From the NCBI GenBank assembly GCA_002245135.1, contig NGBS01000878.1, forward strand, positions 1 through 64,000: a DNA stretch of 64,000 bases, written 5' to 3'. Each line of letters starts with the position of its first letter. Within the stretch, counting starts at the first letter, position 1. This stretch comes from Proteromonas lacertae (lineage: Eukaryota). Positions 817 through 52,100 of this stretch are shown here, one piece after another. The notes under the pieces are model-generated. The model saw only the letters and a list, made by a program, of their open reading frames with translations. It was not told the DNA's origin and made no database searches. The position numbers and the translations under genes are program-made.

Positions 817-858
817 TAAAAATTAAAAAATATTATTCATTCATAAAATTCTTATATA

Positions 859-893
<35 letters not shown>

Positions 894-896
894 AAA

Positions 897-1466
897 ATGA
901 ATAGTAATAAAAATCAAAAAGTAAAAATTACACGTGATTATTATCATAGTGATTCATCTGATGAAGATGATTATAATACACCATTAGCACAAGATATGAG
1001 TAAGACTGATAGAGAGATTGCAGAGTTATTATATAGGTTAAATAAAAATGAAGATGAATTGGTAAATGATAAATCTGAGTTTAATGAACTAGATGACATT
1101 GATAATAAAAATTATATACCAACAAGGCAATCAGTCAAAAAGAATATAAAATTAAGTGAAGAAGCTAGATTACAAAGAATTAAAAACTTAGAGAAAGCTA
1201 GAGCAACAAGAATGAAAAATTTATATGAGAAGAGAAGGAGAGAAAAAGCATTAGATAATTTGAATATTAAAGAGGTTGAAAAGGATTTAGATGTTGATGA
1301 GACATGTACTCTTGATACAATTAAAAAACCTGTTAATAAAAAGAAATGCATTAAAGTACCTGGTAGTGATGATCCATTTAGTATAGGTGATAAAAAAGAT
1401 GGTTTAGAACCAGTTCCAGAAGATGCTAAGATGCCTGGTGATGATGCAATATTACCAATATATTAA
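897..1466 (+). CDS. Element-encoded hypothetical protein with a basic helix (LSEEARLQRIKNLEKARATR)
   Basis: Intact intronless 189-aa ORF whose ATG is preceded by a (TA)n tract; it lies within the viral gene run. Confidence 0.7.
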   Translation: MNSNKNQKVKITRDYYHSDSSDEDDYNTPLAQDMSKTDREIAELLYRLNKNEDELVNDKSEFNELDDIDNKNYIPTRQSVKKNIKLSEEARLQRIKNLEKARATRMKNLYEKRRREKALDNLNIKEVEKDLDVDETCTLDTIKKPVNKKKCIKVPGSDDPFSIGDKKDGLEPVPEDAKMPGDDAILPIY

Positions 1467-1541
1467 TTTATTATAATATTTTTTATTATATGTTTTCTTA
1501 GTGGTTTTATATATATATATATACATATATACATATATAAT

Positions 1542-4500: not shown

Positions 4501-5356
4501 GCTTAATAATTTCTTTCATGGTGCATCTAAAGCAACTGAAGTTATAAAAAATATGAGTCAAGGAACAGTTAATACTATATCAGATATATTTCATACAATA
4601 AAAAATGTTACGGAAACAGAAAAAAATGAATCAGAAATAAAGAAGAAACAAAAAGAATTGGAATTATTACAAGAAAAACGTGTAAGAGAAAAACGTGCAA
4701 GAGATGAAAGAGCAGCAAAAAGAGAAAGATTAAAAGAAATAAGATTAAGAGCAATTGAAGAGGCTGAAAAATCAGAGAGGAGAAGAAAAGTAGCACAAAT
4801 AAATGAACCACCTCCACCATTACCAGGAAGAGTATTAAGAAATAAAGATGAAAGACGTAAAAATTCGAAATATTATAATAATGATAATTTAGTTGATGCA
4901 AGTGGAAATGGAACATATAAAGATATTAATGGTAATGAAGTTACAATTACAATTGGTAAAAAAGTAAATAAACCTGTTAAGAATAAAAGAAGAAAGATAA
5001 ATATTACATTAAATAATGATAATAATAATAATCAACAAAATGAAGTACCAATTACAAATAATAATAATGAAGTACCAGTTGCTGTAACTGATAATGAAAA
5101 AGAAAAAGATTATGATGATGATCCAGATTCAATTATGGCTGTAGGCTATAATACATTTTATCGTCCTATTAGAGAAGATGCTGATATAAATAGACCACTT
5201 ACATCAAATGCAATTCACTTTAGAGATAATCGAGATAGAATTGATTACTTCCAAATGATTCAAAGTAATGGTATAGATCCTGCTAGAGCACGTTTAAGTG
5301 ATGCTGATTTAAATAGATATTATGAATGGCTTAATAGGTCACATAATAAAAAATAA
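1542..5356 (+). pseudogene. Large basic/Pro-rich/coiled-coil element protein split by a frameshift (~1780) and an in-frame TGA (2075-2077); disrupted or recoded
   Basis: ORF 1542..1862 overlaps ORF 1793..2077 at an A5 run. ORF 1793..2077 and the open frame 2078..5356 are in the same frame, separated by one TGA. The downstream ORF starts at GTG and has no nearby ATG. Confidence 0.6.
2664..3291 (+). repeat. Near-identical 327-bp (109-codon) tandem duplication inside the Pro-rich ORF
   Basis: The segment SPIP(I/V)NDNDDGETRYNFRR...YDD(I/V)VIEEPPPP occurs twice with offset 327 (for example 2705 and 3032) and very few mismatches. Confidence 0.95.
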
Positions 5357-5418
5357 TTGATATATTTATATTTTTTATTTAGACATATATATGATGTTTT
5401 ATATATAAATAACATAGA

Positions 5419-6582
5419 ATGAATGATTTACAACATAAAATTTATGAATTATATAAAGACTTTGGTTATTTAAATAAGAATGATTTCATAAATTTTAGTG
5501 TTGATGAATTATCATCAAAGTATTCAAAACCTGATATAACAAAAACTGCTAAAGAGTTAGTTGAATCAAAACCAGATTACCAAGTAGCAGTTAAAAAAAG
5601 AATAAATATTAAATATGAAATAGAAAAGATACCAGGTTCATATCAAATGGATATTATATTTTTTAATAATACAAAATTACCTTTTTTATTTATAATTGAA
5701 GTAGTTAGTAGAAAAGTGTGGATATATTATGTTAAAAGTAAAACTGAATCAAGCGTATTTCCAGTTTTTGAATCATGGTTTTATCAAGGTCTTAAACATG
5801 TTAATGAAAATGCTAGATTTGTAGGTTCTATTTTGATGGATCAAGAATCTGGTGTAATATATGGTAATAAGTTTTTGCAGCTATTTAATAAAAATAATAT
5901 TAGATTTATAATGAAAGATACTGATGAACATAATATAATGAAAATATTAGATAGCGCAGTAAGAACTATTAAAAATATGTTTTATAGATACTTGAATACT
6001 TTTGATGATAAAGAATTTGAAAAGTTAAATAATCTTAATGGTCTAATTGAAATAGTTAACACTGTAGTATTATATTATAATTCAAAACCACATAGCTCAC
6101 TTAATAATTATACACCAAATGAAGTACATGATGATTTTGAATTACAAGATTTGTTTTATAAAGAATCAAGACAAAGAAATAAAGAACGAAGATTAAAAGA
6201 TACTAAATTTGATAGAAATGAATATGTTAGAGTTAAAGAGAGAAGAAGAAATAAGTTAGATAAAAGTAGATATTTTAATGATAAAGTTTATATGATTGAT
6301 AAAAGAACACCTTTTTCTTACTCATTAAAGAATATAGATGGATCAATTCCTTCTGAATTTAATCCTAAAAACCTTGGTTTATTTAAATTTAAACCATATG
6401 AATTAAGAAAAATTAAAAATGCTATTAAAACAAAGGGTAGATTTAGGTTAAGTGCAATAAAAAGCATAAATTCAAACAAAAATGATAGTGATAAAAATGA
6501 TAAAGTAACATATATTGCACCTAAAAATATAAGAAAGAGTTCTTTTGGTAGAACTATAAGACCTAATTCAAAATATACATAA
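5419..6582 (+). CDS. Retroviral-type (rve) integrase, Polinton/Ginger-like
   Basis: Motifs YQMDII (D78), LMDQES (D141), ILDSAVRTIKN (D178) and YNSKPHSSLNNYTPNEV, followed by an SH3-like tail (F..NEYVRV...Y.LK...FKPYEL). No HHCC zinc finger or chromodomain. Confidence 0.92.
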   Translation: MNDLQHKIYELYKDFGYLNKNDFINFSVDELSSKYSKPDITKTAKELVESKPDYQVAVKKRINIKYEIEKIPGSYQMDIIFFNNTKLPFLFIIEVVSRKVWIYYVKSKTESSVFPVFESWFYQGLKHVNENARFVGSILMDQESGVIYGNKFLQLFNKNNIRFIMKDTDEHNIMKILDSAVRTIKNMFYRYLNTFDDKEFEKLNNLNGLIEIVNTVVLYYNSKPHSSLNNYTPNEVHDDFELQDLFYKESRQRNKERRLKDTKFDRNEYVRVKERRRNKLDKSRYFNDKVYMIDKRTPFSYSLKNIDGSIPSEFNPKNLGLFKFKPYELRKIKNAIKTKGRFRLSAIKSINSNKNDSDKNDKVTYIAPKNIRKSSFGRTIRPNSKYT

Positions 6583-6741
6583 AATAAAAAATTAAACTAA
6601 CTATATTATTTAATATTTTGATTTTATTAAAATAAGCTTGAAATCATCAAACATTTCATTAAAAAACGGTTTCTTTCGATTTTGAAATCATTTTTTATTT
6701 TCGACTTTCTCAACACCTTATTCAATATTTCTTTTTAAAAA

Positions 6742-8156
6742 ATGAGTGTACGTGTTAAACATACTTCACCTAGAGATAATGAAGATAATTCTTCATCAAA
6801 GACATTAAAAGTTGTTAAGAAGAGTATATAAATACATCATTAAATATATATAGATGAAAAGAAGACTCAACAAAATGAAGAAGCATTAGCACTACCTTCA
6901 TCATCGAATTCTAATCAAAAAACAGGTATCTATATATATATTATATTATATTATATTATATATACATAGCTTTTGTGCATAGATTTAACAGAAAAAGCAT
7001 TAACAGCTTAGATGTCAAAGAATGGATTAAAATTAGAAGTATTGCACAAAACATTATAAATTATTGTGATGATAAAATCAAATATATTCATTATAATAAC
7101 AGTCCAAGTTTATTATCCTTATCATCAGTAATTAGATATGCTAGTTCATTAAATTTATTCTTTGATGCAGTTGAAAAGAATCCTCAATACATAAATGGTG
7201 AGGTACTAAAAGATATTGATGAAGTCTTATTAATTAGCCCATATTCTCTAGGTGACAATTTTACAACTGATAATAAGTTATTAGGTGGTGTGAAAAGAAA
7301 AGCTAATATTGATGATGATGATGAAGATGATGATGGATGTATTAAACGCAGTAAAAGATGTAGAAAACTAACACCTAAATCAAATATTGGTGGTGAAAGC
7401 ATTAAAGTGCATAAAATAAATACTACTATCAAAAAGCCTTTAAAGTCTGAGAAGAATTTAGTTGATGATGCATTAAAAAATAAGGAGACTGATTGGATTA
7501 ATGATAATGATGTTTTTGAAGATTTTGATGATGATAATGAAGTTATCAAAATTAATGTATCAAAACCAAAGGTAAATATAAAAAAAGATAAAATTACACC
7601 AGTAGCTAAAGTTATTACTGATGAAACTAAAATTACACCACCAGCTAAAGTTATTATTAATAAAGATACATTAAAGGAAATGGAAGACAATATTAACAAT
7701 GATAAAGATTATTATTACAGCAAACATAATTGGGCTAATCCCAAAAAAATTATACAACCAACACTTAAACCGATATTACCTAAAGTGAATTATGAAATTG
7801 CTGAACCACCACCAATAGTTCATGAAAAACCAATTGTTAAAGAAATAGCACCATCATTACCACCTAAACCTTTAGTTAAGATTGCACCTAAACCTTATGG
7901 TACAATCATTAAAGACAATACTCCACCAGTTAAAGTTACACCACAAGATCAGTATGATGTCTTTAAAAAGAAGGTTGAATATCAAAATGAATTAGAAAAA
8001 CAAATTGCTTCATTGAAAAAGACATATGTGCAACAGTTAAGAGATGAAAACCCTAATCTCAAGTTTGATGATGATGGCAATATTGTTGATGTTGATATTG
8101 ATAATGATATTGATTTCAGTCCAGATGAAAGTATATTTGATGACTTTCTTAAATAA
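6742..8156 (+). CDS. Hypothetical Lys/Pro-rich protein, 3 exons
   Basis: ATG6742; removing GT-AG introns 6824-6853 (30 nt) and 6926-6969 (44 nt) joins in frame to ORF 6975..8156. Confidence 0.75.
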
Positions 8157-8322
8157 AAAAAAGTAATTAAAATACTTACTTCTATTTTGCTAAGTTATAC
8201 CTTATCTTTATATTAAAAAGGTAGTCTTTAAAGAATTGAATTATTATTTTTGTTTTTTATTTGGGAAAGATATATACATACATATTCATCTATTACATTA
8301 TAAAATATAACATATATATTAA

Positions 8323-8661
8323 TTAATTATTTTTCTTCTCATTCATATCTAAACTTATATCATCTAGTGATCTATTTGAATGAATTCTTGATACTTTTGG
8401 TGATGGTAGAGGCACTGTTCTTGACATAAATGTAGTCATAGGAACTGATGTACTTGGTGTTACTGGTTCATCTAATATTCTTGATATATCTTCTGGGCAA
8501 TGTCTTCGATATAAATAAACACCTATTTGTTTGATTTTATTTAATAACCATAAACCTAACAAAAATAATACTATATACATCTCATTTTTAAGTGAATCAA
8601 CTGTACTTGATACATCTTTCAAAGAATTCAATATAGATGTATTTGATGATTGATTCATCAT
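8323..8661 (-). CDS. Small single-pass membrane protein
   Basis: 112-aa ORF with the hydrophobic segment MYIVLFLLGLWLL followed by basic residues; a TA tract precedes the ATG. Confidence 0.6.
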   Translation of the reverse strand: MMNQSSNTSILNSLKDVSSTVDSLKNEMYIVLFLLGLWLLNKIKQIGVYLYRRHCPEDISRILDEPVTPSTSVPMTTFMSRTVPLPSPKVSRIHSNRSLDDISLDMNEKKNN

Positions 8662-8751
8662 ATATATAAATACACTTAAAAACTCTATTATATATTAGAG
8701 AGAAACCCAAATAGAAATAATGATTCAATATATATATATATTTAACAATTT

Positions 8752-9210
8752 TTATAATTGTATTTTATTAAGTTTATGAATATAATGTCTCATGCATTTC
8801 TTACATACATTATTCTTATATATTTTTAACTTAGATTTCATTTTTCTACATATAAAACATCTTATTTTATCGTCATCTTTTCTATGCTTATGTTTAGCTG
8901 AATATTTTGTTAAATTTTTATAGTATTTAAATAAGAATTTAAAACATACTTTACATAATGTAATTTCTTTTGATCTATACTCATTTTTAAAGAAACGAGC
9001 GCAATAACCACATTTAAATTTATCATCAGCATCAACTGATATGCTTCTAAGTTCATTCTGTTTTTTACTTCTATATTTTGCACCATAACATCTATTATAT
9101 TCTTTGCATTTATTACAAAGAATTGTAATTCTACCTCTATCATTCATAAAATCATTAATAGGCTTAATACATTCACATCTTTTACAGCGCTTTTTTTCAC
9201 TTGTATCCAT
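8752..9210 (-). CDS. Basic Cys-rich zinc-finger protein (three CxxC...CxxC units)
   Basis: CKRC..CNKC, CGYC..CKVC and CFIC..CKKC; intronless and Lys-rich, as in small viral DNA-binding proteins. Confidence 0.75.
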   Translation of the reverse strand: MDTSEKKRCKRCECIKPINDFMNDRGRITILCNKCKEYNRCYGAKYRSKKQNELRSISVDADDKFKCGYCARFFKNEYRSKEITLCKVCFKFLFKYYKNLTKYSAKHKHRKDDDKIRCFICRKMKSKLKIYKNNVCKKCMRHYIHKLNKIQL

Positions 9211-9296
9211 TTTTCTATTTTTATAAAAAAGAAAAAATAATGTAAAGAAAATTTATAATGAAAATCTTATCGAAAATTATAGTGTTGAAAAACACT

Positions 9297-13522: not shown

Positions 13523-16500
13523 TTATCTCAACATAAATTCACCTAAACCAAAATTAATCGCTGTTAATAACTTCTGCTTCAACACTTCTTCATCTTCATA
13601 ACTAGGTAAATCCAAATGAAAGAAACAAGTATGAGCAACAGGTAAATTATCCAAACTTCCTTCTTTTCGAACTAATTTGAAAGTTCTTTTCCAAATCTTA
13701 AGAGGAGGTAATCTACTTCTTCCCCACACAAATCGAATAAACAAACTACGATAATCATCAGAAAAACCTTCCAATACTTTCCAGAATAATTTCACTGTTT
13801 TATTATTACATCCACCAGGCCAATTATGATATTCAGTTTTACTTTTTAACATCTCAATATCAACTGTTGCATTTCCACATACTAACAACTCTAATTGATC
13901 CCAATTCAATAATTTCAAAGCTCGGCTTGGGATTAACTGAGTTAAACCTTCTTCGATTGCTTCACAAGCATCATCAAACTCTTGTAATCGATATTCAATT
14001 GCTAAATCACAATATCTCATTCGATTGTCTAAACTTACTCGAATAGAACTTCCATTAGGGATTAATTCTATTACTTCATCATTACTGTTTGTTAAAGTAA
14101 ATGTTAAATCATTAAATCTTTCATAAAACATATTTTCAGCATCTTCTTGTTTATCATCAAAGTTTTCAATATCTTTTATAAATGTAATAAAACGATTATC
14201 AATATCTTTTAAATCAAATATATCAACTCGTCGATCAACTAAATACTTCCAGATAATTGAAGGGAAATAAAATGGTTTGAAATTCTGAGTTCTTAAAGAA
14301 ATTCCAATTAAATAACCAACTGTTTTAAACATTTCCATAGCTTCCACACTACAATGTTTTGGATTGGGAATATATTTATCAGTATTGAATTTATATCCTT
14401 CTTTATTATTTGCACATGGAATAAATAAGTCAATTATATCACTGAATAAGTCTTCCACACATCTTTCTAAAGCTTCTCGATAGATTCCACCCATATCTAT
14501 TCCATCTTCATTTTTAAATATTACTGTAAATAATACATTCTTTTCTTCATCCATTGGACATCTAAAATACTTTGGTTTGAAGATTTTTAATGAATTGTGA
14601 AACTATATATATAATATAATATTTATATTATTCATACTTGTGTAAACATACATTCACTACTTAATGCATCTAATGGTTTATTCAAACGATGTGACTTCTC
14701 CATACTTACAAATGCCAAATGATTGTTCAATTCAATTATTGTCTCATGTTCTGGTCGTTTTACTTCAGTTAACATTATACATTGTTGTAATACTTCTTCT
14801 TTTGTATGGATAAATATCAAAAATGAAATTTCACTCAATTTGTGACCTAATGATTGAGAATTTGTATCATTAATCAAATCAACCATATGGATTACTCTTT
14901 CTAGTTTTTTATTTAATAATAATATTATGGCATATCTTAACATCAATTCTTCATGACTTATATCTGATATTACATCATATCTTATTGAATAATCTTTAGA
15001 AAACTGTTTTGGAATATCTTTTGGTAACACTGACATATGATCACAATTCTATATATATATAATAATATAATAATATAATAATATATATACATTATATTTA
15101 CTTAAAATACTCATTGATATATAATCCATCAAACTGTAATCCATCTCATAATTCCATTTTCTCATTTTTACATAATTTGACTCAATTATTTCACTATTTA
15201 TCTCAAATTCACACAGTTTATGAGCTCTTATAAACAAATACAATGGAATATCATTCTCTTTATTATTAATACCTAAAATCAGTTGATTATATAAACACTC
15301 AGTTAAGAATATTACATCATTTGCACATTCATCTAATGGTTTATTATCACTGTCTTTATTCATCGATTCATTTATCATTTCTTCTGTAATATGATCGTGT
15401 TTATCTAATTGATTATTATAATAAGCATCAGCTAAAGATGCATAACATGTCATTTCCACTAATTCTGTTACTCGACGAGGTAAGAAAGAAGAAACATTCA
15501 ATTTATTGATATTTGTATTAGAATTAGTTGAAGTATGATTCTTCTCTTTTACATTCTTTTCCATGTAATTGAATATTGTCTTTCTCACTCCATTTAATTG
15601 GTTTAAATCAGGTTTATGATCTTCACTATATTTCTCTGGATTATTCAACATCAAAGTTAGTAAATTAATCACTTTGTGTTTATAAGGAGCTCCTCTTGCT
15701 CGAATGTATGAGACTAAAGAGTTAAAAACTTCTTCAGTAAAAATATTTGAACTTTCTAAAGCAATATTTTCGATTATTATGTAGTTCATTATCCAACATG
15801 ACCATTCTAAAGATCCTTCATTCAACATTGTTTCTTCATCGATTTGTGAGAGTGAGAATATTGGATAAGTAAAGAAATGATAACCATAAGCTGTATTATT
15901 CTCTTCATTTCCTGCTGATTTGAATGTAAAATATAATGTATCTCCTTTGATAATGAGTGGAGTAAAGTTGTTACTATCTCCTGAGTATTTTGCTATTACT
16001 TTTGAATATTCACTATCCTATAAAACAATATAATAAATATATAATATATAAAAATACTTCATAAAATGTTAATGCAGCATCTTGTTGATTAATTTTACAC
16101 TTGTTTCTAAATACAACCCATAATCCATGAGCATCTTTAATATAGACTTTATCTTTATAATAACAACGATAATAGTAAGGATGTAAACTACTTCGAGCTA
16201 CAGCTTGATCTATGGAAGTAGGTTTGACATTATTCATCAATTGTTTAATTGCATCATCAACAAATAGCTATACAAAAAAACGATAATAATAATATCATAA
16301 ATATACATCAAGAATAGATGAATTTGTTTCATTCAATAATGTCAATTTCATTATATTCTTCATCACTCTATTCACCATTAAAAACAATCTACCAGTTGTT
16401 GCATTTTTCTTCTTATTAGCCATAAACAGATTCTCTGTAGACATTAGCAATTGCAAATATTGAACAACATTTCTACCATCATCACTAATATGTCTTAAAG

Positions 16501-22902: not shown

Positions 22903-25900
22903 ATGAGTGATATAGAGAATAATGAATTAAATGAGTCAAATGAAAATATAGATGATAGTGGCACAAATATATCTAACAACCTGGAAGGTAGTAGAGGTGA
23001 TAATGAAACAATGGAAGCAGATAATGAAAATAACAACCAAACTGAAAATCTAGATGATTCAGATTTATCTGAAAAGAAAGATAATGATGATAACTTAGAT
23101 GAGAACAATAATGACGAAGAAGGTAATAGTACAGAAGACAACCCTCCTGTTGATGTAAATGAAGGTGAAGAATCGACAGAATCACCAAATAAGGCTGAAG
23201 AATCTTTAGAAGAATCAGATGAAGGATATAATGATAATTTAGTTGGAGATATAATAAATGAGCATAATGATAAAATAGAAGAAAGTGGATTTGAATCATC
23301 TTTCGCTGATTCAATGACTCACACCAAATCTCCAATACATAAAAATCCAGAATTAGAGACAGTAAATGAAAATGAAGATAATAATACAAATGAAGAATCT
23401 GTAGAAACAACAAAAACAGAACCTGTTGAAGAAGCAAATGAAGAGAATGATGAAGAGAAAGAGGAGGAGAATGTAGAGAATGAAGAAGAAAAAGAGAATG
23501 AAAATAATGAAGAAAATATTGAAGAAGAGAAAGAAGAAGAATCAAAAGAGGAAGAAAATGTAGAGAATGAAAAAGAGAATGACAATAATGAAGAAACAGT
23601 TGAACAACCAACTGAAGAAACAAAAGAAGAAGAAGAGAATGAAGATAATAATGAAAATAACAATGATAATGATAAGAATGAAGAATCTGTAGAAACAACA
23701 AAAACAGAACCTGTTGAAGAAGCAAACGAAGAGAATGTAGAGAATGAAGAAGAAAAAGAGAATGAAAATAATGAAGAAAATATTGAAGAAGAGAAAGAAG
23801 AAGAATCAAAAGAGGAAGAAAATGTAGAGAATGAAAAAGAGAATGACAATAATGAAGAAACAGTTGAACAACCAACTGAAGAAACAAAAGAAGAAGAAGA
23901 GAATGAAGATAATAATGAAAATAACAATGATAATGATAAGAATGAAGAATCTGTAGAAACAACAAAAACAGAACCTGTTGAAGAAGCAAACGAAGAGAAA
24001 GATGAAGAGAAAGAGGAGGAAGAGAATGTAGAGAATAAAGAAGAGAATAATAGTGATGAAGAAACAAAAGAAGAAGAAGATAATGAAGAAGAAAGAAGAA
24101 GAAAAGAAGAAGAATCAGCTGTAAAAATTGAATCTTTATTTAGAGCTAAAAAAGCTCGAGAAGAAGTAGAAAGAATGAAAAGAGAAAAAGCTGAAGAAGA
24201 AAAGGATAAAGAAGATAATGAAAATGAAGATAATAATACAGAAGATAATGAAGAAACAGTTGAACAACCAACTGAAGAATCAAAAGAAAACAATGATGAA
24301 GAAACAAAAGAAGAAGACGAAAATAATGAAGAAGAAAGAAGAAGAAAAGAAGAAGAATCAGCTGTAAAAATTGAATCATTGTTTCGAGCTAAAAAAGCTC
24401 GAGAAGAAGTAGAAAGAATGAAAAGAGAAAAAGCTGAAGAAGAGTTAAGAAAATTAGAAGAAGAAGCTGCAGAAAGACAAAAGAAATGGGAAGAAGAAGA
24501 AGAAAAGGAAAGACAAGAAGAACTTAAAAGAAAAGAAGAAGAAAGACAAAAACAATTAGAAATAGAAAAAAGAGAAAAAGAAAAAGAAGAAAAAGAAAAG
24601 AAAAGATTTGAAGAGCTTGAAGCAAAGCTTAAACAAATTGAAGATGAGAATAATGAAGTAATCAATGAAAATAGAAATGGTATAAAACCAATATCGCCAA
24701 TAACAACTGTAGAAACACATATAATACAAGAAAAACCACCAATTACAAATAATGAAGAAGAAGAAGAAGAAGAAGAAATAATTCCAAAATCAAATCATAA
24801 ATCATCTAAAGTTGTTCCAATACCAAGTGATGATGTAGAACCAATAAAGAATCATCGAAGAAAGCAACCTGATAATATTAATGAAAATGATTCAATGGAA
24901 AGAGTTCCAAAAGCTAAAAGATATTATTCAACAAAAGATAGTCGAATTCCTCCCAAGAAAACAATTAGACCAGAAAATAGAAAAGTTGAAAAGTCTCCAG
25001 AAGAAGAAATTAGTTATAATGTTCAAAAACAAGGATTAAAGAGTGATAATAAAAGAAGATTCCAACCAGAACCAATAAGAAGTAGTAGAAATAATAAAGA
25101 TGAAAAATTACCAGCAATTACACCAAAGTCTAATGTATCTGCTGTAGATGCTCAAAAATTATTAGAAATAAAAGCAATGGATAGAAGAATGACTGATAAA
25201 ATAATAGCCAAATATGAAACAAAGATAAGTCAATTATACAGTAGAATCAAGACATTAGAAGATGAAAATACAAAGTTAAATAAAGATAGTGAAGATTATG
25301 TAAGAAAATGTAAAGAAGTATCATTACATCAAAGTAAACAATTACGTTTAGAACAAGAAGTAAACAGACAGCAAAAGACAATAGATGATTATGCAAATAG
25401 ATTAGAATCAACATTACAAGATAATAAGTTATTAGCTGATAAATATATGGTAGTGATGGAAGAAAATAAAACTTTGAAACAAAAATTACAGAAATTAAAA
25501 ATGAGATTAGATGGTAGTGGTTTATCAGGAAATCCAGTTCCAGCAGAACCAACCAATAATGAACAGAATTTACAATTAGAAATTGTTGAATTAAGAAAGA
25601 AACTCCAAGATGCAAAGAAAAAGATAAGAAACTTAAAAGAAATAAATGAAAATCAATTGAGTTATAATGCCAGTAGTAAAGGTGGTGAAGTAGATCGTTC
25701 TGTAGAAGATGAGTTAAAACATTTACAATATGAAAATGAGCAATTACGAAGAATAGTTGAAGAAGATCAGAAAGCAATGAAATCCTTCTTAAAAAGATCA
25801 GAAATGGAAGGCTATGGTGGTGATGTTGAAAAAAGTCCAATTATTAGAACAAGAACAAAAAAGAGTGGGAAAATTGTACCAGAGTCTTATACAGAAAAAA

Positions 25901-26112
25901 CTAAAAATTACTCAGTTTATGGTTATCCAAAGAAGAACAAAACTAAGAGAGGAATTCAACCTCGACAAGAACAGAATCAGTGTTATTTCCCAGCTTTGAA
26001 TAAGCAAGGTCCACATTATGTGAGTGGTAGTAAGAGTAGTAGTTATTTATATCCACCAAAAGTGAGGGATGAACCAATTGATTTTGAAGATGAAGATTAT
26101 CCTTTATATTAA
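22903..26112 (+). CDS. Intronless acidic-repeat and coiled-coil protein with two IQ-like motifs
   Basis: 1069-aa ORF with an E/N-rich repeat N-half, two copies of AVKIESLFRAKKAREEV, and a long C-terminal coiled coil. Confidence 0.85.
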   Translation: MSDIENNELNESNENIDDSGTNISNNLEGSRGDNETMEADNENNNQTENLDDSDLSEKKDNDDNLDENNNDEEGNSTEDNPPVDVNEGEESTESPNKAEESLEESDEGYNDNLVGDIINEHNDKIEESGFESSFADSMTHTKSPIHKNPELETVNENEDNNTNEESVETTKTEPVEEANEENDEEKEEENVENEEEKENENNEENIEEEKEEESKEEENVENEKENDNNEETVEQPTEETKEEEENEDNNENNNDNDKNEESVETTKTEPVEEANEENVENEEEKENENNEENIEEEKEEESKEEENVENEKENDNNEETVEQPTEETKEEEENEDNNENNNDNDKNEESVETTKTEPVEEANEEKDEEKEEEENVENKEENNSDEETKEEEDNEEERRRKEEESAVKIESLFRAKKAREEVERMKREKAEEEKDKEDNENEDNNTEDNEETVEQPTEESKENNDEETKEEDENNEEERRRKEEESAVKIESLFRAKKAREEVERMKREKAEEELRKLEEEAAERQKKWEEEEEKERQEELKRKEEERQKQLEIEKREKEKEEKEKKRFEELEAKLKQIEDENNEVINENRNGIKPISPITTVETHIIQEKPPITNNEEEEEEEEIIPKSNHKSSKVVPIPSDDVEPIKNHRRKQPDNINENDSMERVPKAKRYYSTKDSRIPPKKTIRPENRKVEKSPEEEISYNVQKQGLKSDNKRRFQPEPIRSSRNNKDEKLPAITPKSNVSAVDAQKLLEIKAMDRRMTDKIIAKYETKISQLYSRIKTLEDENTKLNKDSEDYVRKCKEVSLHQSKQLRLEQEVNRQQKTIDDYANRLESTLQDNKLLADKYMVVMEENKTLKQKLQKLKMRLDGSGLSGNPVPAEPTNNEQNLQLEIVELRKKLQDAKKKIRNLKEINENQLSYNASSKGGEVDRSVEDELKHLQYENEQLRRIVEEDQKAMKSFLKRSEMEGYGGDVEKSPIIRTRTKKSGKIVPESYTEKTKNYSVYGYPKKNKTKRGIQPRQEQNQCYFPALNKQGPHYVSGSKSSSYLYPPKVRDEPIDFEDEDYPLY
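23389..24442 (+). repeat. Internal coding tandem duplications
   Basis: NEESVETTKTEPVEEANEE starts at 23389, 23677 and 23941 in near-identical DNA; the IQ-like block is duplicated at ~24080-24200 and ~24325-24442. Confidence 0.9.
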
Positions 26113-26247: not shown

Positions 26248-27534
26248 TTATACCAAAACCTCATCATAATCATTAACATAACTGATAAGTACAGGATAAT
26301 CAATACCAAGCTCAATATTGAGTTTTTCTTTGAAATGATTGAAATAGTGTCTTTCCTTAATATTTCCTAATAGTATAATATAAGATCCTTTAGATGTTAT
26401 ATCCAATATCTCAGTATGACTAAGTTCATCTGTTATTAATACATCAGCATGAATATATTGAAAAATTCTATATTTTGATTCACCACTACAAATAGCAATT
26501 TTACTAACTCTTCGAAGATCATTTGGTGGTTTCTAATGAGAATAATAAAAATAATGAAAATAATAAATGTATATAGATACTGCAATTTGAATATAATTAA
26601 TTCCATAATACTGTTTAATTCTATTCACTAAATCATCGATAGATATATCAGGAATAATATCACATATTCTTCCACATCCACAATCAATTTCTAGTTGATT
26701 TGGTTCAATAGGTTTTGGATTTATTCCACCTATTCCTATAGTTAACCAATCATTTACACCATTTACTACATTGTCACAACTTGTATGATGTATATATATT
26801 CCTATTCCATTAGTTATACAGTTTAATATTATTCTACCAATTCTATCTTCATAGTTAAGTTTTTTAATATCTGTTTTTATTAGTGGTTTATAACTCACAA
26901 TTATATACACTTTATTGTGAATTGCTTCATTCACTACTGAATCATTAATTTCATAAGTTAATAGAAGCTTGTAAGGAGGCTTGATGAGTAGTTGGGAAGG
27001 TTCTAGAATTAGTCCAACATTATCATCATCTTCACATAATTTGATTGGATGGGTTTTGTCCAAAGCTTTTAGTATCTTATTGACAGGTTCATTTTCTGAT
27101 ATTATTTTTGGCATTTTGTCAATTATTTCCCTCTTTACTGAATATATTGTACTTGATGGCACTTCATATCCTTCTGATAAAAGAAACATTTTCAAATCTT
27201 TAGCTGTAGCTTTTGGATTTGCCATTAAAATAGGTGTAATCTTATTAACAAGCGTTTTATGAGTTAGAATGCAACTACATCTCTTCCTTTCCACAGGTAT
27301 ATCACCAATTGAGTGGACATGCTTTTCCAATAGCAAAGTACACTTTACTTTGTCATCTTTATGTTTGCACATTAAACATTTGAATGGGCAACCCTTATAA
27401 TTGCAAGATATCTTAAATGAGTTGGCACTTCTTTTTATTGTAGGACGAAACAGATTATTCTCACCATATTCATCAACAGCTTTTCTTGCCTGATATTTGT
27501 TAAGGAATATAACACCTTGTTGCAAAACTGACAT
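26248..27534 (-). CDS. Fusion of a Mutator/MuDR-type (WRKY-GCM1-like) zinc DNA-binding domain to a degenerate NIF3/DUF34 domain; 2 exons
   Basis: N-terminus G.IF....AR.AV..Y...ISC...GCPF......LLEKH.H. C-terminus DNVGLILEP, LLTYE, VSYKP, IYIHHTSCD...GVNDWL; after the 48-nt intron 26533-26580 come IAICSG and ADVLITDELSH. Confidence 0.8.
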
Positions 27535-27571
27535 TCAAACAACTAGTCGTTTCAAGATAATCAATTTTGAA

Positions 27572-30500
27572 ATGGATTTCTCTTCTCAATTCTTGCTAAG
27601 TACTTATGAGCATTTGATAAACTGCATGGTAGAAAATATGACTCGCCTACCGAAAGTGAGTGAGCAACAAGTTGATATTTTTCTATCATGTCTTCCACAA
27701 ATTGATAAAAAGATGTATATATATAATCCATATCAAAATGTATAGAAATACTACAACAGAAATAGAGCTTGATAGAAGACAGTGTTGCGCTATATCTGCA
27801 GCACCTCGATTATTAGCATTAAAAGCTATTTGTGAGGATAAAATTTTTGAGCAAATAATCCATTACACTAGCCACTTCAGTTTGATCAAAATACACGATT
27901 CAAAAGTCAAAGAAGAATTTATCACAAGTTTTGTTCGAGTATAGCTCAATCATATATTCCAATAGAAAACGGTAAATTCTCTTCATTGTTGTAATAAAGA
28001 CCACATAAATCAGTATCTAGATACAGTATCTACTGTAATAAAGTATTTATTGGGTAGTTTAGAGGTATAAGTATTTATTTTTATTTTTTTTAGTCTGATC
28101 CAAGTGCTAAGAAGGTATTACTTTGCGTATTAAGTGGTTTAACTTCCAAATCAGATTCTTATGATTTTGATGTAGAGAAGTGGAAAGATTTACCGTTCCT
28201 CAATGAATTTATTAACAAATTGTTGAACAAAGCCATACCCAATCTTCATGATATCGCATCTAATCTACCAGAATCTAATTCTGTAATTCAAGATACTCCT
28301 AGAGCAGAATATACTAGTCCAGAAGGTGATTCAGACCAAACAGATCAAATGAACAATGAAGCAAATGATTCTCACAAGAATAAAACAGATTCAAAAAATG
28401 ATGAAATTGATTTACCTAAACATATAAGAGATGTTAAAGATTTCACTTCTTCATTAGGTCCTTCATTAGATATAAGTCAAAGGAGATCCAGTATGACAGG
28501 AACACTCTCTCATTTACAATTCAAAAATGTATTCGGTTCAGAAACACAATCTCTTATTAATCAAATGATGTTATTATTGAGTAGAATCGTACAATCCATT
28601 AATCAAACCTCATCTGAAGAAATCCCTGAAATTATTGCTCATTTAGATGGAATAGTCGAGCCTATGATAATGAGAGGTGCCAGTGTATTATTAACAGGTG
28701 CTTCACCCTTATTATTATCAATAACATTGAAATATCCAACAACATTGAAGAGAAAAGCATTAAAAATATTAACCAATAGATTAATCGGATCAATAAGACA
28801 GTGTAATAACTGTACTGCAATTAATGCATTATTACATTCAATTACTATGTTGACAGTGAAATATAATGATTTAATTATGGATTATGTGAAAGGAATATCA
28901 ACAATATATCAACATAATCCAAGTAATCCACAACTATTTCAAGGTATATAAATATAAATATATATATATATACTATTATTATTAATTTATAGAGTTTTGG
29001 AATAATAATCAAGTCAATATCTTATTCTTCAAATCCATTACTGAAATCATCAAAACTGAAATGAAACTATCTGATGATCAATCATACTTTAGTTCTGGAA
29101 GTAGAGAAATATTATTATCATTATATAATACATTTTATGATATTGAACAAAGAAAAATCACTTGTACAAATGAAGTATATTATAATATATTATTTATTTA
29201 TTTATTTATATATACATAGTATACTCATTTCTTACTAAAAATGGTTGGTTATATTGGTGCTAATGTAGGAAATGAAAGAGGAGTAATTACATTACTATCT
29301 ACCTTTGGTACTAAAGCAATCACAATGCAATATAAGAATCCATATCTTATTAGTTTATTACCTGAAATGGTTGCAATTGCATGTACATCACCACTGATCA
29401 ATGAGTCATCCAAGATATTTCATCACTTATTTGAACTATTAGATACTTCATTTAAAAAACAGTTGAATGAAGTAATAACAGTAATTTTCCAATGTATTCA
29501 TTATTGTTGTATCAATATTCAAGGAGATAAACAACGAGCTAATTTCACTAAAGTATTTCTCTCACAAGTAAAGAAGATTGCTTCTTCAAATTATGATAAA
29601 AAGAAAGTCGATGATTCGTTGAATAAATTGAGTGATTTATATGGTGGATTAATTCCATCATTATCATCACTTTCTAACTATTTCAACGGTTATTCCAAAC
29701 TTAATACAAACCTCTCTGAAGTGAAAGATGATGTAAATGAGAGTTTAGTAGAGTTATATCGAGATACTTGGTTTTATTTAGATATAATCCATATGATTAA
29801 TCCTAATAGTAAATGGGGTGGACATTTGTGGAATGAACTGGATATATTTGCATCAAATACCCCCATTTTAATTGATATATCTATTAATAATCAAGATTTA
29901 GAGACTAAATTAGCATGTAATGCGATATTAAGTCAAACAAAGAATGAATCTAATGAAATGATTATGAAAGAACATGCTTCAAAGATATTCAAAGATCTTT
30001 CTACTGATATTAACTCATTATCATATTATTCATTAGTTTATTTATTAACAATGTATATATATATATATTTATTATTATTTTTATTATTATTATTATTATA
30101 GATATAATGTTGAGAGTATGAGAACAACTTATACAGGTAATATCAAGCCAATATTTCAGTATATTCATTTTATTTTTTTATATTATATTATTTCAATAGT
30201 TATTTAATGGATAACAGTCTCTGTACACCCTCCTTCTTAAAATGTATAAATCAATTAGGAACAGAAATATTCATAGCCTTTGAAAGAAGTGGTAAATATA
30301 TAAAAGGTAGTGAAATTGATTATGATTTATTAACAGATGATATTCAATTCTTATTATCACTATGTGTACATGGATATGAATCTGTAAGGAAATTAGCCAA
30401 TCAAATGTTGTTCTTATTCTTAGATAAATTTCCAGAAATGAAATTCAAAAGAAAATGTGTTTGTACAATTTTAGAAATTTGTAATGCAATTTCTACAAAG

Positions 30501-33500
30501 TATGATGATTTATTATATGCACCACATATTCTAACACAAAAGATATATGTTCCTTCCTTACAAAGTCCATTAGATTTACCATCCAATAGAAATGTATTAA
30601 AAAATATAATGACACAAATGGAAAATATAGTAAATAAATGGTTGGTGAATGGGTTCGAACGCGCTCCTCAGAAGATGGCAATTTTATTAAATTCATTCAT
30701 TAATGTAATGCCTAAATCCACTCTTCCTGGTAATCATAACACTGGAATTGGTATTGGTACTTCATTATTAGCACAAAAGATATTAAATGGAAATATGAAT
30801 ATATTTGATTCATCCAATAATAATAATAACTCAATACCTTCTACAAATATATTTACAAAGATACATCATAGTAATTTGAATTGGTATATAGGTGAATTAG
30901 AACTGCAAGGTTATTATTTAGGATTATTAAGTAGTAAATTGCAATCACTGTATTTGAAAGGTGATGAACAACCTTTTCATACTATTACATTATCATTAAT
31001 TGATAAATATCAGAAATATTTAGAGAAATGTCATGATTATTTCACTCATCCAAATGTAGAATATAAGTATATATATATATATATATATTATATATAAATA
31101 GAAATCCTGATGAAATCAATAAATCTTTTCATCCATTAGTATTGAACTATCTTAGAAATAATAATCCACAAATAAGCAGAGAGTTGTTATCTTTAGAAGA
31201 GGAATATACTGATATACTATTAACTATCACATCATTATTATTAATTGAATCATCGAATGAAGTGAAGATAGAAAGTGCTGATACTTTGTTTTATATTGTT
31301 ACACATTTACCTACTTTATTATGGACGTATTTATATATTTATATATTTATATTTATATTATATAGTGATAATTCAGTCAAAATTGCATGTTTAGCTTGGA
31401 ATTGGATATTAACATTAACTACAAAAGGAGGAGTATATTTTCTTTATTATGTTTTTTGTATTATTTTATTTTTTATTAGGCGTTATTATGGAGTTATATC
31501 CTAACAGCATTCTGTTATACCAAACAAATACGAGTTGGTTTATTCTATGGTAAAAATCAAAAAGATAAATATAGCAGTTGGTATAAATGTAAAGATTCTG
31601 ACAATTTATTATTTTTTCCACCACAAGGTAATTACTATATTTATTCACCCGATTTCATCAGTAATGATACAGTAAATAACTATCCGTTTCAAAGAAATCC
31701 ATTCCCTCATTCTTATTGGATAGATTTTCTTAATGAAAATATTGAAGTGATGGTTAATCATTCACCAAACTTAGTATATTATTATTATTAATGTTATTTA
31801 GATTAATTCTGTATTTATCTGTTTCCACGAATTACTCAGTGATCCTTCAATGTTTTCTGAAGAAATAGAATCATTAGATACACGAGTATTACTCCTAGAA
31901 ACTGTGTTAAAAACAATGAAATTAACCACCTCCATCTCTATACCACTAGATACTTTATTATTATTGAAAGTATATTTGTGTGGTTTACATTTCTTCACCT
32001 TACCTGTTCAATTCTTCACTACAATATTAGAAAAATATGATTATTCAGTTAGTGATTATAAAACTCAGAATTTGTTGAATAAAATGATTAAATTGATTGA
32101 ATTATTAGAAGAAGTGAATGAGAAATGTCCAACTATAAGAGTCTCCAGTGTGGCTGATGTAAATCTTAATGCAGAAACTACTAGATTAGTATATAAATAT
32201 AGTTTATTTATTTCATTTTAATAGAGTTTTTATTTAGAAAATCTACAAACCATTCGTGATATGTTGGTGTTATTAATCAACAAAGAAATTGACCATTTAT
32301 ACAATTATTACAATCCCATTAATCTTCCACAGAAAGTAATACCAAATATTCAAAAGTATATGTTTTCATCTAAATCAAGTGTAATTGGTGAAAGACAGTG
32401 GAAATTGTATTGTAATTTATTCTATCAAATTGATCCATTATTGGCATTACAAGTACAAGAAAGATTGAAGATTAAAGTGTTTAAAAATGAAGTATATATA
32501 AATATTTATCATATTTTATAGTTGGTTCGAATTGTTCAGTTAAATCCAATGGAAGTATGTAATTACAGTACAATATCCTTGAAATATATAATCAAAAAGA
32601 ATATCCTCATTAGAAATGAGAAATTGTTAGTTAATTTATTATATTTCTCACCATCCTCCTTCCCTATTTTATTGAGATTATTATCACGTTGTACTCCAAA
32701 TTCATCTAAAGATATTCCATATTTTACAAACACATACATTGGTCATTATACTATTAGATCTTTATCTTACTTCTCACCTGATACTATATCATTCTATTTA
32801 CCACAATTAGTTCAATGTTTAAGATTTGATAAGTTAGGATTAATTAAAGATTATTTATATAAAGTATCAAAACAATCAATATTAGCATCACATCAATTAA
32901 TATGGAACTTGAAAGCAGAATCAAAGAGTGATGATGATTCATCTAATAAATCAACACCTACACATGGTTATTTAGATAAATTGATTGGACCAGATCCACT
33001 TCCAGCTTATGCTACAGTTATGATTGGAGATATTGAGATGTTATTATCACCAGAAGCTAAGGTATTATATGATGATGAATTTAATTATTTTGAATTATTG
33101 TCAGTTGTAAGTGCAAAATTGATTAAGGATGAACCATTGAAAAGATTTAAATTAATTAAAGATTATTTGAATGAAATAAAAAGTCAATTATCACTTGAAG
33201 ATAAGATTATTTATTTACCAACAAATCCTTATAAAAGGTTAGTAGAAGTTGTATATGAATCAGCTACTCCTATGCAAAGTGCTGCTAAAGCTCCATACTT
33301 TATATCATTTACAGTTGAAGATTTTGGTGGTCCAGATGCATGTTTAAAAACTAGTAAAGATTTAATCAACAAGAAAGTAGCTACAGCTGCAGAAGTGGAA
33401 AATCAAAGTTCAATGATGAAATATGTAGCTTTAACAAAGAATCTCAAGCAAAGAATTTCTTTAAAATCATCATCATCATCATCAAAGAATAGTCCAATGA

Positions 33501-34626
33501 AAAGAATGTCATTAAATGATTCAGTATTCTCTGAAAATGAAGTTGATAAGAATGATCCTACCTCTAAAAGTGGTAGTAATAATGCTGGTGGTAGTAGCAG
33601 TGAAGATGATTTCTTTACTGATACTGTCTTGAATCAGATTAATAAAGATAAAAAGAATAGAACTAAACAGATGAAAACATTCTTCCAAAAGTATATATAT
33701 ATATATTATTATGAAATAGGAATATGAAGAAATTAAAAAGTCACAATAAATCTAATAAACATAATAATAGTAATGACAACAATATCAATGAAGATGATGA
33801 TGAAGATGAAGATGATGAAGATAAGAAAACTAAAATGAGTGTTATTATGAAAGTGTATAATATAATATAATATACTTTTATATTTATAACAATAGAAATG
33901 ATGATTGTCGACAAGATTGTTTAGCATTACAATTCATAAATATAGTCAAAGTTATATTTGATAGTGTTGGCTTAGAATGTCCAGTTTTCCCATACAAAGT
34001 AATAGCCAATAGAACTGGTCCAAATCTAACCGTTGGAGGAATATTAGAAGCAGTACCCAATACAAAATCAAGAGATAATATTGGTAAAAACGGATATAAA
34101 ACTCTACTTGAATATTATAATTCAATATTTGGTAGAAGTGATGGAAAATCCTTCTTAAAATCTCAATCTAGATTTCTTAAGAGTTTAGCTGGTTATGCAG
34201 TTGTCTGCTTTTTATTATCTGTAAAAGATCGACATAATGGTAATTTATTGATTAATAACAAAGGCCATTTAATACATATTGATTTTGGATTTTTATTAGG
34301 AATTAGTCCAGGTGGTAATTTAGGATTTGAAACTGCAGCATTTAAGCTAAGTAATGAAATGTATGAATTATTAGGAAATAGTTTTGATTCTGATGAATTT
34401 ATTGAATTTAGTGAATTATGTATAAGATCATATTTAGCTGTGAGAAGTCATTACAATTCATTATTATATTTAGTATATATATATATATATGTAATTATTT
34501 ATTGATAGATTACCAGTATGGCAGATAGTGGTTTACCTTGTTTTGTAGATAAAACATTACTATTATTAAAACAAAGATTTCATCCTGAAATGACAGAAGA
34601 ACAAGCATCTAAATTTATGAAAGATA

Positions 34627-40676: not shown

Positions 40677-41027
40677 CTACATTGATGTGTATTTAGTAAC
40701 TGCCTTTGTACCTTCTGATACAGCATGTTTTGATAATTCACCTGGTAATAATAGTCTAACTGATGTCTGAATTTCACGACTGGTTAATGTGGCTTTTCTG
40801 TTATATCTAGCTAAATGAACTGCTTCTTCAGCAAGTCTTTCAAAGGTATCGTTGACAAATGAATTCATAATTGACATAGCTCGCTTGCTAATACCAACAT
40901 CTGGATGCACCTGCTTTAAAACTTTGTATATATAGGATGAGTATGTCTCGATTCTCTTCTTCTTTCTATGAGCGTTATCAGACTTCTTTTTAGTGCTTTT
41001 CACACTCTTATTTGGAGTTTTTGCCAT
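40677..41027 (-). CDS. H2B: Histone H2B
   Basis: [21 protein letters not shown]...[30 protein letters not shown]. Confidence 0.98.
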
Positions 41028-41209
41028 TTGCTAGAGTTATATAAGCAAGAATATATACGATTTTAAGCGCCAAACAACTGCCAATAACTTCTTTCTAAAT
41101 TCTAAAAGATCAAAAATCATTCTATTCAAATCCTGCGATTTGATTGGACTAAATAAAAAGCGCGCCAAAAGTGTTTTATTAATTCATTCTATTTCTCACT
41201 CTATAGTTA
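41028..41209. promoter_or_regulatory. Bidirectional H2B/H2A promoter with E2F-like and CCAAT elements
   Basis: GCGCCAAA at 41067-41074 and GCGCGCCAAAA at 41160-41170 (reverse complement of TTTGGCGC); CCAAT at 41081 and ATTGG at 41143. Confidence 0.65.
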
Positions 41210-41632
41210 ATGTCAGGTAAAGGTAAAGGAGGAAGAGGTGGTAAAACAAGTGGTAAGACCATTTCAAGATCATCCAAGGCTGGACTTACATTCCCTGTAG
41301 GAAGAATCGCTAGATTGATGAGAAATGAACATGTAGCTGATCGTATTGGTGCTGGTGCTCCAGTTTATTTGGCGGCTGTGATTGAGTATTTAACTGCTGA
41401 GATTCTTGAATTAGCAGGAAACTCAGCCAAAGATAGTAAAAAATCTAGAATTATTCCACGTAATATTCAATTAGCAATAAGAAATGATGAAGAATTCGCT
41501 AAATTGTTTAATAATGTGACTATTGCAGGAGGAGGTACTTTACAGATGATCCATCAAGAATTATTAGCAAAGGGAAGTAAAGCAGCAGCTGATAGTGATA
41601 ATGAAACTGGTTCTGCTTCACAAGCTTACTAA
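41210..41632 (+). CDS. H2AX: Histone H2A with C-terminal SQAY (H2A.X-type)
   Basis: [15 protein letters not shown]...[25 protein letters not shown], with a terminal SQ-x-Phi motif. Confidence 0.9.
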
Positions 41633-49197: not shown

Positions 49198-52100
49198 TTA
49201 CATAATATAACCATCAACCACCACTTGATGTTTTCTTTTATATGATCTATAAACATAATACGATAAACCCACAATAAGTACAGCACCTAATAATCCACCA
49301 ATTACACCACCAGCTATTGCACCACCATTTGAACTTTTCTTCTCATATCGTTGATGAACAAAATATACAACACCAAATCTATTTCCTTTTTCTAATTCCT
49401 CTTCGATTGTTATTCTATTACCATTTCTACTACATTGAACTGGTTCTTCTACATCCACTGTTAATGAATTCTTCTTCTTAAAACAACTATATTTCATATT
49501 TTTATCATTCGTTTTTAATGGAATTTGTAGTTTTGTTTTTATATTACATTGTAATGGTTTATCTGTGTCAAAATATATTTGATAAGAATATTCAACATAA
49601 CTCTGTGGATTTTTAATAACAAATTCAGTTGGATATACAGATAGACTGATATTTATTAATTCATTACATTTTCTCATTGATTGTGAATCTTTTATATCTA
49701 AAACAATATTATCCATCGGTTGATTCAATTTGATTGTATTATTATTGAATATTGGTTCAAATGTAATTTTATCTGTATTATTTGAATAAATTGAGTGAAT
49801 ACCAGCTTCTAATAGCATTATTCCATTATCTAAATCGTTCAAATCAAATAAATCGAACAAAGATGACAATACAGTGTAATATGATTTGTAATTACTATCT
49901 TGTAATAATCTATTATTATTGTTATTAGTTCCTTCTACTGTTATTGTTGTTGTTGTTTTTACAATCGGTGTAGTAGTTGTTATTATTGTTGTATCATTAT
50001 CATGACTTGTAATATTATCTAAAATTGCAGTAACTAATAATTCACCAATATCTTCTTTATTTTCAATATCCTTAGCAATTATTAAGGATGATTTTACTGT
50101 CACATCTATATACTGTTTATTACTCAATAACGTAGGTAAAATATTCACATTCTCTTCAGGTCTTGATCTCATGATAGTCGTGAATAAATCTTGAATAAAT
50201 ATATTCTCTTTTAATGCTATTGTTGATAAGATTTCATTTAAATATAAACTCTTTGGAGTATCATCAATCATTTCTCCTACTACAGTTCCATTATAAGATT
50301 GAATAATTAATACTTCTAAAAAGTAATCAGTTTTTATCCATTTCTCTTCTCCATGTTTATAACATATAAAATAAGTAGTTTGTTCTTGTAACCATTGAAT
50401 TGTAAAGTGAATAAGTATATCATCAGGGAAAACAGTTAATTCAAATGGATAACCAGTATGTTCATTACAATCTTCAGTTTTTGAGAATAGAAATAAATCA
50501 TTACTTTCTATACCTTTACCTCTTATTTGTAAGTGTTTCTGTGAACTGATTAAACCATATATTGGAGCTATTAAGTTGATATAAGGATCAGTTCTAAATG
50601 TCATTTTCAACTCGGAGATTTCTTTATTTAGTCCAATTCCATTTTCATCAATTTCATAACAATATATATCATACCAAGTGAAGTATATTAAATCATCAAT
50701 CTTAAATGGAGTATAATTGTTCCTAATTATTTCTTTCTTATATTTTGTATTATTATTATATATATCTTCAACACTCGTTGGTGTAATATCTAAATAATGT
50801 ATTAATGGTAAGCAATAAACAGTAGCATCTGAGGAGGAATATAGTAACAATTCAATTGAATCAAAACTAGTACTTTGTAATGTAACTGTTAATTCAGGAT
50901 AAGGATTAGTAGTTCTAAAGTTCTGTTTATTGACATTCAAATCAGATTCATCTCCATTCTCAGTTTCAATTCCACAGTATAATGTATATTCCATTTCATT
51001 TAATAGGTTATTCACTGTAATTGAGACTGTTTTATTTATTTCTAATTCTTTCTTTGATTCGGATGATAGTAACTTCAAAGTAGTCCAACTTGGTTGAGAA
51101 TCATATATAATACGACTTAAACAGTAAATATATCCTTTCAATTCACTCTCTATTTCAACATCTACAGAATTTGGAGAAGGTTTGACTGATGTTATTGTCA
51201 TTGTTGGAATGATTAATGTTTTTGTTTTAAATGTCATATCTTTAATAGATGTTGATACAGATACTTCATTCATATTATAACCAGTACAATACACATTGTA
51301 TTCTGTCTCAGATTTAAGGGATGGAATTGTAATCTGAGTAATTTCATTGGCTGTTGTAACTGATAAAGGATCACTCGTTGTAAACTTTTCATCAAATTCT
51401 ATATTCGTCAATTGAGCTTTACACTTTATATAACCATCTTGACTTAATACAGCTGTAACTAATATACTTTGAGATAAAGGATTGACTTTTATATTAGTTA
51501 GTGTTGGTGCTGATGATGGTAATGTTGTAGTTGTAAAGTCTTTCTTTGATACTGCTGATTCTGTATTTACATTATCAACCATATGGCATTCTAATCTATA
51601 AGATGTAGAAGGTGTCAAGCCATATTCAAACTTTGTAAAATCAGATAACGAATGGATGGATGTATAATAATTTGTAGTAATTGCTTCATCATTACTATCA
51701 TACACTTGACATTGATAAATACCATTCATTGAGGCTTTTAATGTATATTTTATTGAATTACTAAATGGAGTAACTGATACTATGGTTATTGATGGTTTTG
51801 ATGCTGTTTTGATTGATAAATGTGTACTTTCTATAGTTTGTTTCATTTCCAAAGGTCTTTCACTGTATGAATAACCATTACAATATATATGATAATCAGT
51901 ATTGGATTCTAAACTACTAATTGTATAGGAACTTTCAACATCTTTCAATAATATAAAATCTAAATTAACAAAATGTGAATCTGTTGGGACTTTATTCTCT
52001 TTTAAAGCAATACATTCTATTAAAGCATCTCTTGTTGATTTTATATTTAATATAACTGAAATAGATGTTGTTGAATTTTGTTTAATTGTGAATTCAGGTG

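Follow-up and report, generated by a model that had tools for sequence, protein, structure and literature searches.

Introduction

Among transposase-derived host genes, the plant proteins FAR1/FHY3 and MUSTANG are domesticated Mutator elements (MULEs) that largely keep the transposase core, and SETMAR fuses the DNA-binding part of a transposase to a host domain. THAP is also a transposase-related DNA-binding domain. The yeast proteins Rcs1/Aft1 and Aft2 and the Candida protein Rbf1 are described as MULE-derived, stand-alone WRKY-GCM1 factors, and a fungal fusion of a WRKY-GCM1 domain to an isochorismatase has been proposed to act as a sensor (PMC1702500).

The universal DUF34/NIF3 family still lacks a settled molecular function; a role as metal chaperone or insertase has been proposed, and the human protein has been tied to co-repression (PMC8469502). 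The metal site is reported to consist of five His, one Asp and one Glu (PMC1779786, PMC8469502), with core motifs of three His, one Asp and one Glu (PMC4163360), and Tyr in place of the first His is the eukaryotic norm (PMC8469502). Family members form dimers and hexamers (toroids) via their NIF3 surfaces (PMC1779786). Two prokaryotic NIF3 proteins bind DNA in vitro (PMC4163360), and a NIF3 ring could therefore itself contribute to DNA binding. A survey of DUF34 lists 47 fusion classes; fusions with RING- or THAP-type zinc fingers are treated in its section 3.8, and the THAP-type finger is named among the notable eukaryotic fusions (PMC8469502).

In the present study we describe a gene of Proteromonas lacertae in which a zinc-finger module of DNA-binding type precedes a DUF34/NIF3 domain, a fusion architecture that is real, selected and apparently undescribed. 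Like the WRKY-GCM1 factors, its product carries the module without a transposase core and is apparently encoded by a single copy; unlike them, it has (i) a DUF34/NIF3 partner with a degraded metal site, (ii) a short Cys spacer together with HxH, (iii) a retained helix-turn-helix (HTH), (iv) a protist host lineage and (v) a PF03108 score below the cutoff. As in the fungal isochorismatase fusion, the module is joined to an enzyme-like fold that is a possible sensor. The gene would join FAR1/FHY3, MUSTANG and SETMAR as a transposase DNA-binding part turned host gene, but here the core is absent and the host domain is C-terminal. The RING/THAP–DUF34 fusions likewise join a zinc finger to DUF34, the finger class being different in our case. 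With the DUF34/NIF3 family (YbgI, YqfO 2gx8, SA1388, MJ0927/HcgD, NIF3L1) the protein shares a whole DUF34 domain, spread across both exons and free of a PII-like insert, and with eukaryotic DUF34 the Tyr for the first His and an Arg after the final Glu (PMC8469502). It departs from the family in having Lys216, Thr358 and Asn375 for His, Asp170 for an aromatic residue, and a DNA-binding-type module of 140 residues in front.

Results

Gene structure and genomic setting

The window analysed is a stretch of 64,000 nt (positions 1 to 64,000 of contig NGBS01000878.1, assembly GCA_002245135.1). It is AT-rich (GC 0.23-0.32 per 2 kb, about 26% overall), with short intergenic gaps and short introns (candidates mostly of 25-61 nt; 29/33 length classes), figures that agree exactly with neither human nor tortoise Blastocystis. 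The fusion gene, of which the window holds one copy, lies on the minus strand, with an ATG at 27534 and a TAA stop at 26250-26248; its spliced product of 412 aa contains no internal stop. Exon 1 (27534-26581) comprises 318 open codons, and exon 2 (26248-26532) encodes residues 319-412 followed by the TAA. The 48-nt GT-AG intron between them (26533-26580, phase 0, G+C at 7/48 bases) ends with an in-frame TAG. This intron is supported by related proteins (12 in all; see below), whose read-through tails reach the same exon-2 start in other frames. The tails imply an intron of 49 nt in 2/12 proteins and of 47 nt in another 2/12; 6/12 stop where a 51-nt intron would end, which possibly reflects that length, and the remaining 2/12 stop one codon after exon 1, so that the intron length is not deducible.

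Exon 1 encodes a putative zinc-finger module of WRKY-GCM1/MuDR-like type (residues 1-80; 27295-27534, minus strand), a three-helix HTH-like domain (residues 89-141; 27112-27270, minus strand) and the N-terminal DUF34/NIF3 part (residues 146-318; 26581-27099, minus strand); the C-terminal DUF34 part is encoded by exon 2. The original prediction had a Mutator-type zinc and helical module, lacking the DDE core, running into a NIF3 domain within a single exon. The junction indeed lies inside exon 1, with no stop, the whole gene having two exons. The DDE transposase core was not found either: the region that follows the module (residues 151-393) is DUF34 instead.

The neighbours of the fusion gene are a convergent gene 135 nt away and a divergent gene, whose likely ATG (27626) is separated from that of the fusion gene by a 91-nt intergenic gap (27535-27625) in which no terminal inverted repeat was found. 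This gap is likely a promoter shared by the two divergent genes. A PI3/PI4-kinase gene (27626-34505, plus strand) is probably arranged head-to-head with the fusion gene across these 91 nt; its PIK and kinase domains (32522-34502) are probably encoded by the divergent gene with the likely start at 27626. No long inverted repeat flanks the fusion gene, and no target-site duplication was seen: comparison of the upstream gap with the 3' flank or the junction gave neither direct matches of 8-10 nt nor inverted ones of 8-12 nt.

Relatives and selection

A search among 800 candidates yielded 14 matches, two of which, P0001 (89%) and P0002 (87%), span all of exon 1. Their clusters comprise 2 and 10 Logan proteins, respectively, i.e. 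12 in total, which are 84-89% identical and carry the same exon-1 fusion; all family counts of 13 given here refer to these proteins plus the window copy. In 13/13 sequences the junction is gap-free and the frame open, with the four predicted zinc ligands, YKP and HTSCD kept; M141 is likewise present in all of them. Scans of JGI metagenomes confirmed none of the pattern matches (0/389 and 0/118), and within the collections searched the fusion appears to be confined to this small clade.

Across the three lineages, the N-terminal module has 18 variable columns out of 142, whereas the NIF3 part of exon 1 has 40 out of 176 (p=0.028, Fisher test), and the zinc module has 9/90 variable columns (p=0.012); the pairwise contrasts are borderline (p 0.04-0.08). 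All 11 Cys and His of residues 1-142 are invariant across the three lineages. Conservative changes account for 10/11 substitutions in P0001 and 9/12 in P0002, vs about 3 expected, and neither count was reached in any of 1,000 neutral simulations, of which 672 and 702 acquired a stop; the model used was a simple one without transition bias, so this contrast is somewhat overstated. As the module varies less than the NIF3 part and its changes are conservative, we infer from the aligned proteins that it is translated and under protein-level selection. The expectation that the fusion would be found in relatives under purifying selection was thus borne out at the protein level.

The zinc module and its probable Mutator assignment

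The predicted C-x4-C...HxH motif is present in residues 44-74. C44-x4-C49-x22-H72-x-H74 follows a pattern seen nowhere else in the window's six frames; the same Cys/His pattern is rare in shuffled sequence, arising in 66/20,000 shuffles of residues 1-90. The four ligand positions, invariant in the family, have WRKY spacing; HxH with a short Cys spacer also fits that of classical WRKY domains, whose signature is absent from the module. Residues 1-85 are basic, with 17 K+R vs 8 D+E.

PF03108 (DBD_Tnp_Mut) is the only Pfam family matching residues 1-90 (15.7 bits, E 0.012). The scores obtained with this profile (12.5-15.7 bits, E 0.12-0.012) fall below the cutoff of 25, so the HMMER check suggested for DBD_Tnp_Mut did not give a passing match, and only 1/13 family members matched the profile at E<=1. 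In the ESM Atlas the top match (0.92, 177 shared features) was a eukaryotic cluster in which 16% of members carry PF03108 and Oomycota are commonest, followed by clusters of AFT, FAR1, ZSWIM3_N and HTH_FAR1. The best matches having a family share one family or clan (10/10), a result also obtained by a third of shuffled proteins; 4-10% of shuffled proteins reach 0.9, and we take the Atlas result as a lead.

Two AlphaFold models place a helix at residues 13-23, followed by strands, with Cys44 ending strand 2. This order of elements fits a fold of four strands preceded by a helix, but the pLDDT is <50 over residues 1-90; a helix ahead of strand 1 is shared by the MULE-type WRKY-GCM1 families (PMC1702500). 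Foldseek gave no match at E<=0.001 with either model, both being too poor over residues 1-90 for this result to count, and the VIA comparison, whose rows cover only residues 86-147, contained no WRKY, GCM1 or Aft2 chain. HMMER over 1.84 billion representatives returned two proteins at E<=0.001 (P0001 and P0027), neither of them a MULE transposase relative. A search with residues 1-145 gave 0/140 longer candidates at E<=1 and 0/1 shorter ones at E<=10, which is weak evidence only.

A Mutator origin of the N-terminal module is, in our judgement, likely, and it stops short of being proven because no MULE transposase was recovered. What supports the predicted MuDR/WRKY-GCM1 derivation is thus the motif together with the topology of the models and the Atlas matches; a passing Pfam score, a confident fold and a transposase homologue are not among its supports. 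Codons 1-142 have a GC3s of 0.23 vs 0.12 (p=0.006); foreign origin was rejected as a reading of this high value, given that values of 0.25 and 0.20 occur in the H2B gene and in codons 1-140 of another ORF, respectively.

The HTH-like region

Residues 91-140 are modelled as a confident three-helix bundle (pLDDT block means 71-92). VIA matched this region to HTH domains with Z 5-7, the first being the IstA transposase (Z 7.1, rmsd 2.5, 55 aligned), followed by ArgR (Z 6.9); Mos1, Tc3, SETMAR and Sleeping Beauty were also among the matches. Such Z-scores (<8) may reflect a common arrangement and not kinship. Weak sequence matches were obtained to the RED subdomain of Sleeping Beauty (phmmer, E 0.88) and to HTH_Tnp_Tc3_2 (E 0.21). 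The Tc1/mariner origin that these could suggest was rejected, because the HTH resembles numerous families to the same degree and the zinc module suggests MULE instead. P0027 matches the helical region with E 1.2e-5; it is a protein of 254 aa in which a short HTH repeat, similar to residues 98-140 of the fusion protein, is present three times.

The NIF3 domain and its lost metal ligands

PF01784 (DUF34) matched exon 1 with 91.6 bits (E 8e-26, residues 151-317) and exon 2 with 32.8 bits, both above the curated cutoff of 23.4 bits, as foreseen for the NIF3 Pfam check. The two matches jointly span profile positions 3-239 of 256, and the profile matches 13/13 family members. TIGR00486 scored 70.3 and 23 on the exons taken separately (cutoff 130.55). 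The best solved relative of the NIF3 part is PDB 2gx8 (E 8e-14). Matches to FecR_C, rSAM TrsS and 2gk4 were dismissed as chance. A second NIF3 gene was not found in the 64-kb window.

Alignment of the NIF3 part with 2gx8 and all 12 non-fusion homologues from the search among 800 candidates provided a map of its motifs. The YKP reported near 26887 is encoded at 26892-26884, with the Lys216 codon at 26889-26887. This Lys replaces the second His of HHP/YHP, present in 12/12 homologues, and YK stands in place of the HH/YH metal motif in 13/13 fusion sequences. Similarly, the GH-motif His of 12/12 homologues is Asn375 in the GNIKER sequence at 26367, confirming that this motif has no His; the C-terminal Hxx(x)E motif thus reads G-N375-I-K-E378 (followed by R, and preceded in exon 2 by TDELSHT), as seen in the window copy only. 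The spacing before E378 is one residue short, which is not a lesion, because it is also found in 2gx8, 3lnl and P0010. In place of the His after TG(E/D), found in 11/12 homologues, stands Thr358, whose preceding residue is a His, and the aromatic residue preceding DNVG (12/12 homologues) is Asp170. The HTxxD motif, in contrast, is kept as HTSCD at 26787 (H250-TSC-D254) in 13/13 fusion sequences, as predicted; H250, D254, E354, H357 and E378 are all retained in the window copy.

The ligand positions of the fusion protein are those that we take to correspond, by alignment and YbgI numbering, to the sites of the family. On this mapping the three core His positions are all non-His (Y215, K216 and N375), and a two-metal centre in the NIF3 part is therefore unlikely. 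The claim of a degenerate metal site holds for Lys216 and Asn375, which replace His; in YKP only the Lys counts as a loss, since Tyr is the normal eukaryotic state. H250, D254, E354, H357 and E378 could still bind one metal, which counts against a metal-dead reading.

Discussion

The reading that we favour, by a modest balance of probability, is that the fusion protein was domesticated within a restricted lineage as a DNA-binding regulator, its NIF3 part serving as a metal-dead scaffold. A 5' segment of a MULE, comprising the zinc domain and the HTH, would have come to lie in frame ahead of a NIF3 gene of the host, for which M141 is a plausible old start. C44, C49, H72 and H74 would bind Zn, and the basic first strand (RPTIKRS) together with the HTH would contact specific DNA. 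The NIF3 part would later have lost metal ligands, and with them the two-metal centre, while keeping its fold, and may still form dimers or a hexameric ring. Since family members form dimers and hexameric toroids, such a scaffold could present two to six DNA-binding heads, suited to spaced or inverted sites, and could recruit partners. In its most specific form, a hexameric, multivalent transcription factor with a transposase-derived head on a metal-dead NIF3 ring, the proposal is a good deal more doubtful. If true, it would provide the first natural DUF34 kept for a ring or partner-binding role after loss of the dinuclear site, and would make it possible to test directly whether NIF3 has a function in the eukaryotic nucleus that does not depend on metal.

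Some features could instead point to a metal- or ligand-sensing transcription factor, in which a retuned NIF3 pocket lets one metal or small molecule switch DNA binding, as in the MULE-derived yeast iron regulators Aft1/Aft2. The conservation of H250 and D254 in 13/13 sequences and the retention of E354, H357 and E378 in the window copy agree with it, as does the fixation of YKP in 13/13, which means that the Lys may itself be selected. There is moreover a reported link between DUF34 and metal handling (PMC8469502), an endogenous ligand is found in SA1388 (PMC1779786), and a sensor role has been proposed for the WRKY-isochorismatase fusion (PMC1702500). However, Y215, K216 and N375 are all non-His, the aromatic residue before DNVG is Asp, and a Lys at a ligand position would more likely fill the site than bind a cation; we regard a sensor as unlikely. 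Rather improbable, in our view, is a module that is a real DNA-binding domain but represses transposons by binding Mutator ends, or that derives from a host WRKY-type factor. The failure to recover a MULE transposase homologue would suit either version, and HxH with a short Cys spacer fits classical WRKY spacing too; yet both the N-terminal helix and the HTH behind it are of MULE type (PMC1702500; HTH_FAR1 cluster), the WRKY signature is absent, and the strong conservation argues against an arms race.

It is very improbable that no fusion protein is made in vivo, i.e. that translation from M141 yields a degenerate NIF3, while the frame upstream is what remains of a transposon, under DNA-level constraint in a shared promoter region. 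M141 does lie where a stand-alone NIF3 would start, in 13/13 sequences, but every lineage has the frame open and in register, the substitutions seen are conservative, no Cys or His varies, and conservation is higher in the module than in the NIF3 part.

The specific transcription factors of this protist lineage are poorly known, and the gene is a candidate transposon-derived regulator added there. A selected copy that lacks metal ligands and carries a DNA-binding-type module separates the metal and co-repression roles of DUF34, in a protein that is small and directly testable. Regarding novelty, a literature search on NIF3 with transposase, domestication, MuDR and fusion found no report of this architecture, and the passages of the DUF34 survey covered here name no MuDR or WRKY fusion (PMC8469502), while its full list of 226 sequences may bear on the question. 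The exact combination thus appears undescribed, as originally stated, but its novelty is somewhat lower than claimed, the THAP–DUF34 (PMC8469502) and WRKY-GCM1–isochorismatase (PMC1702500) proteins being precedents for the principle.

Other features of the window

Several further features were observed in the window. Positions 91-9250 are almost devoid of introns and contain an Arg-rich basic ORF (91-816), a proline-rich ORF of 1092 aa that includes an internal repeat (2078-5356) and, at 5413-6582, an rve-like integrase (PF00665 E 2e-4, which falls short of the cutoff; GC3s 0.08). This block resembles an integrated Polinton/Maverick-like element. A single-exon ORF on the plus strand (22903-26112) encodes an acidic, coiled-coil-like product of 1069 aa with internal repeats and no Pfam match. 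A stop-free ORF of 3775 aa on the minus strand (49198-60525) likely encodes a giant surface protein: its N-terminus is signal-like, a hydrophobic segment lies C-terminally, and no Pfam family matches at E<=0.001. A divergent H2B/H2A pair is located at 40677-41632; the H2A C-terminus is SQAY, which we take to be an H2A.X-like tail. Finally, the minus strand carries a large multi-exon gene for a HECT E3 ligase (13523-about 21800), with a PF00632 match of 238.7 bits at 13526-14602.
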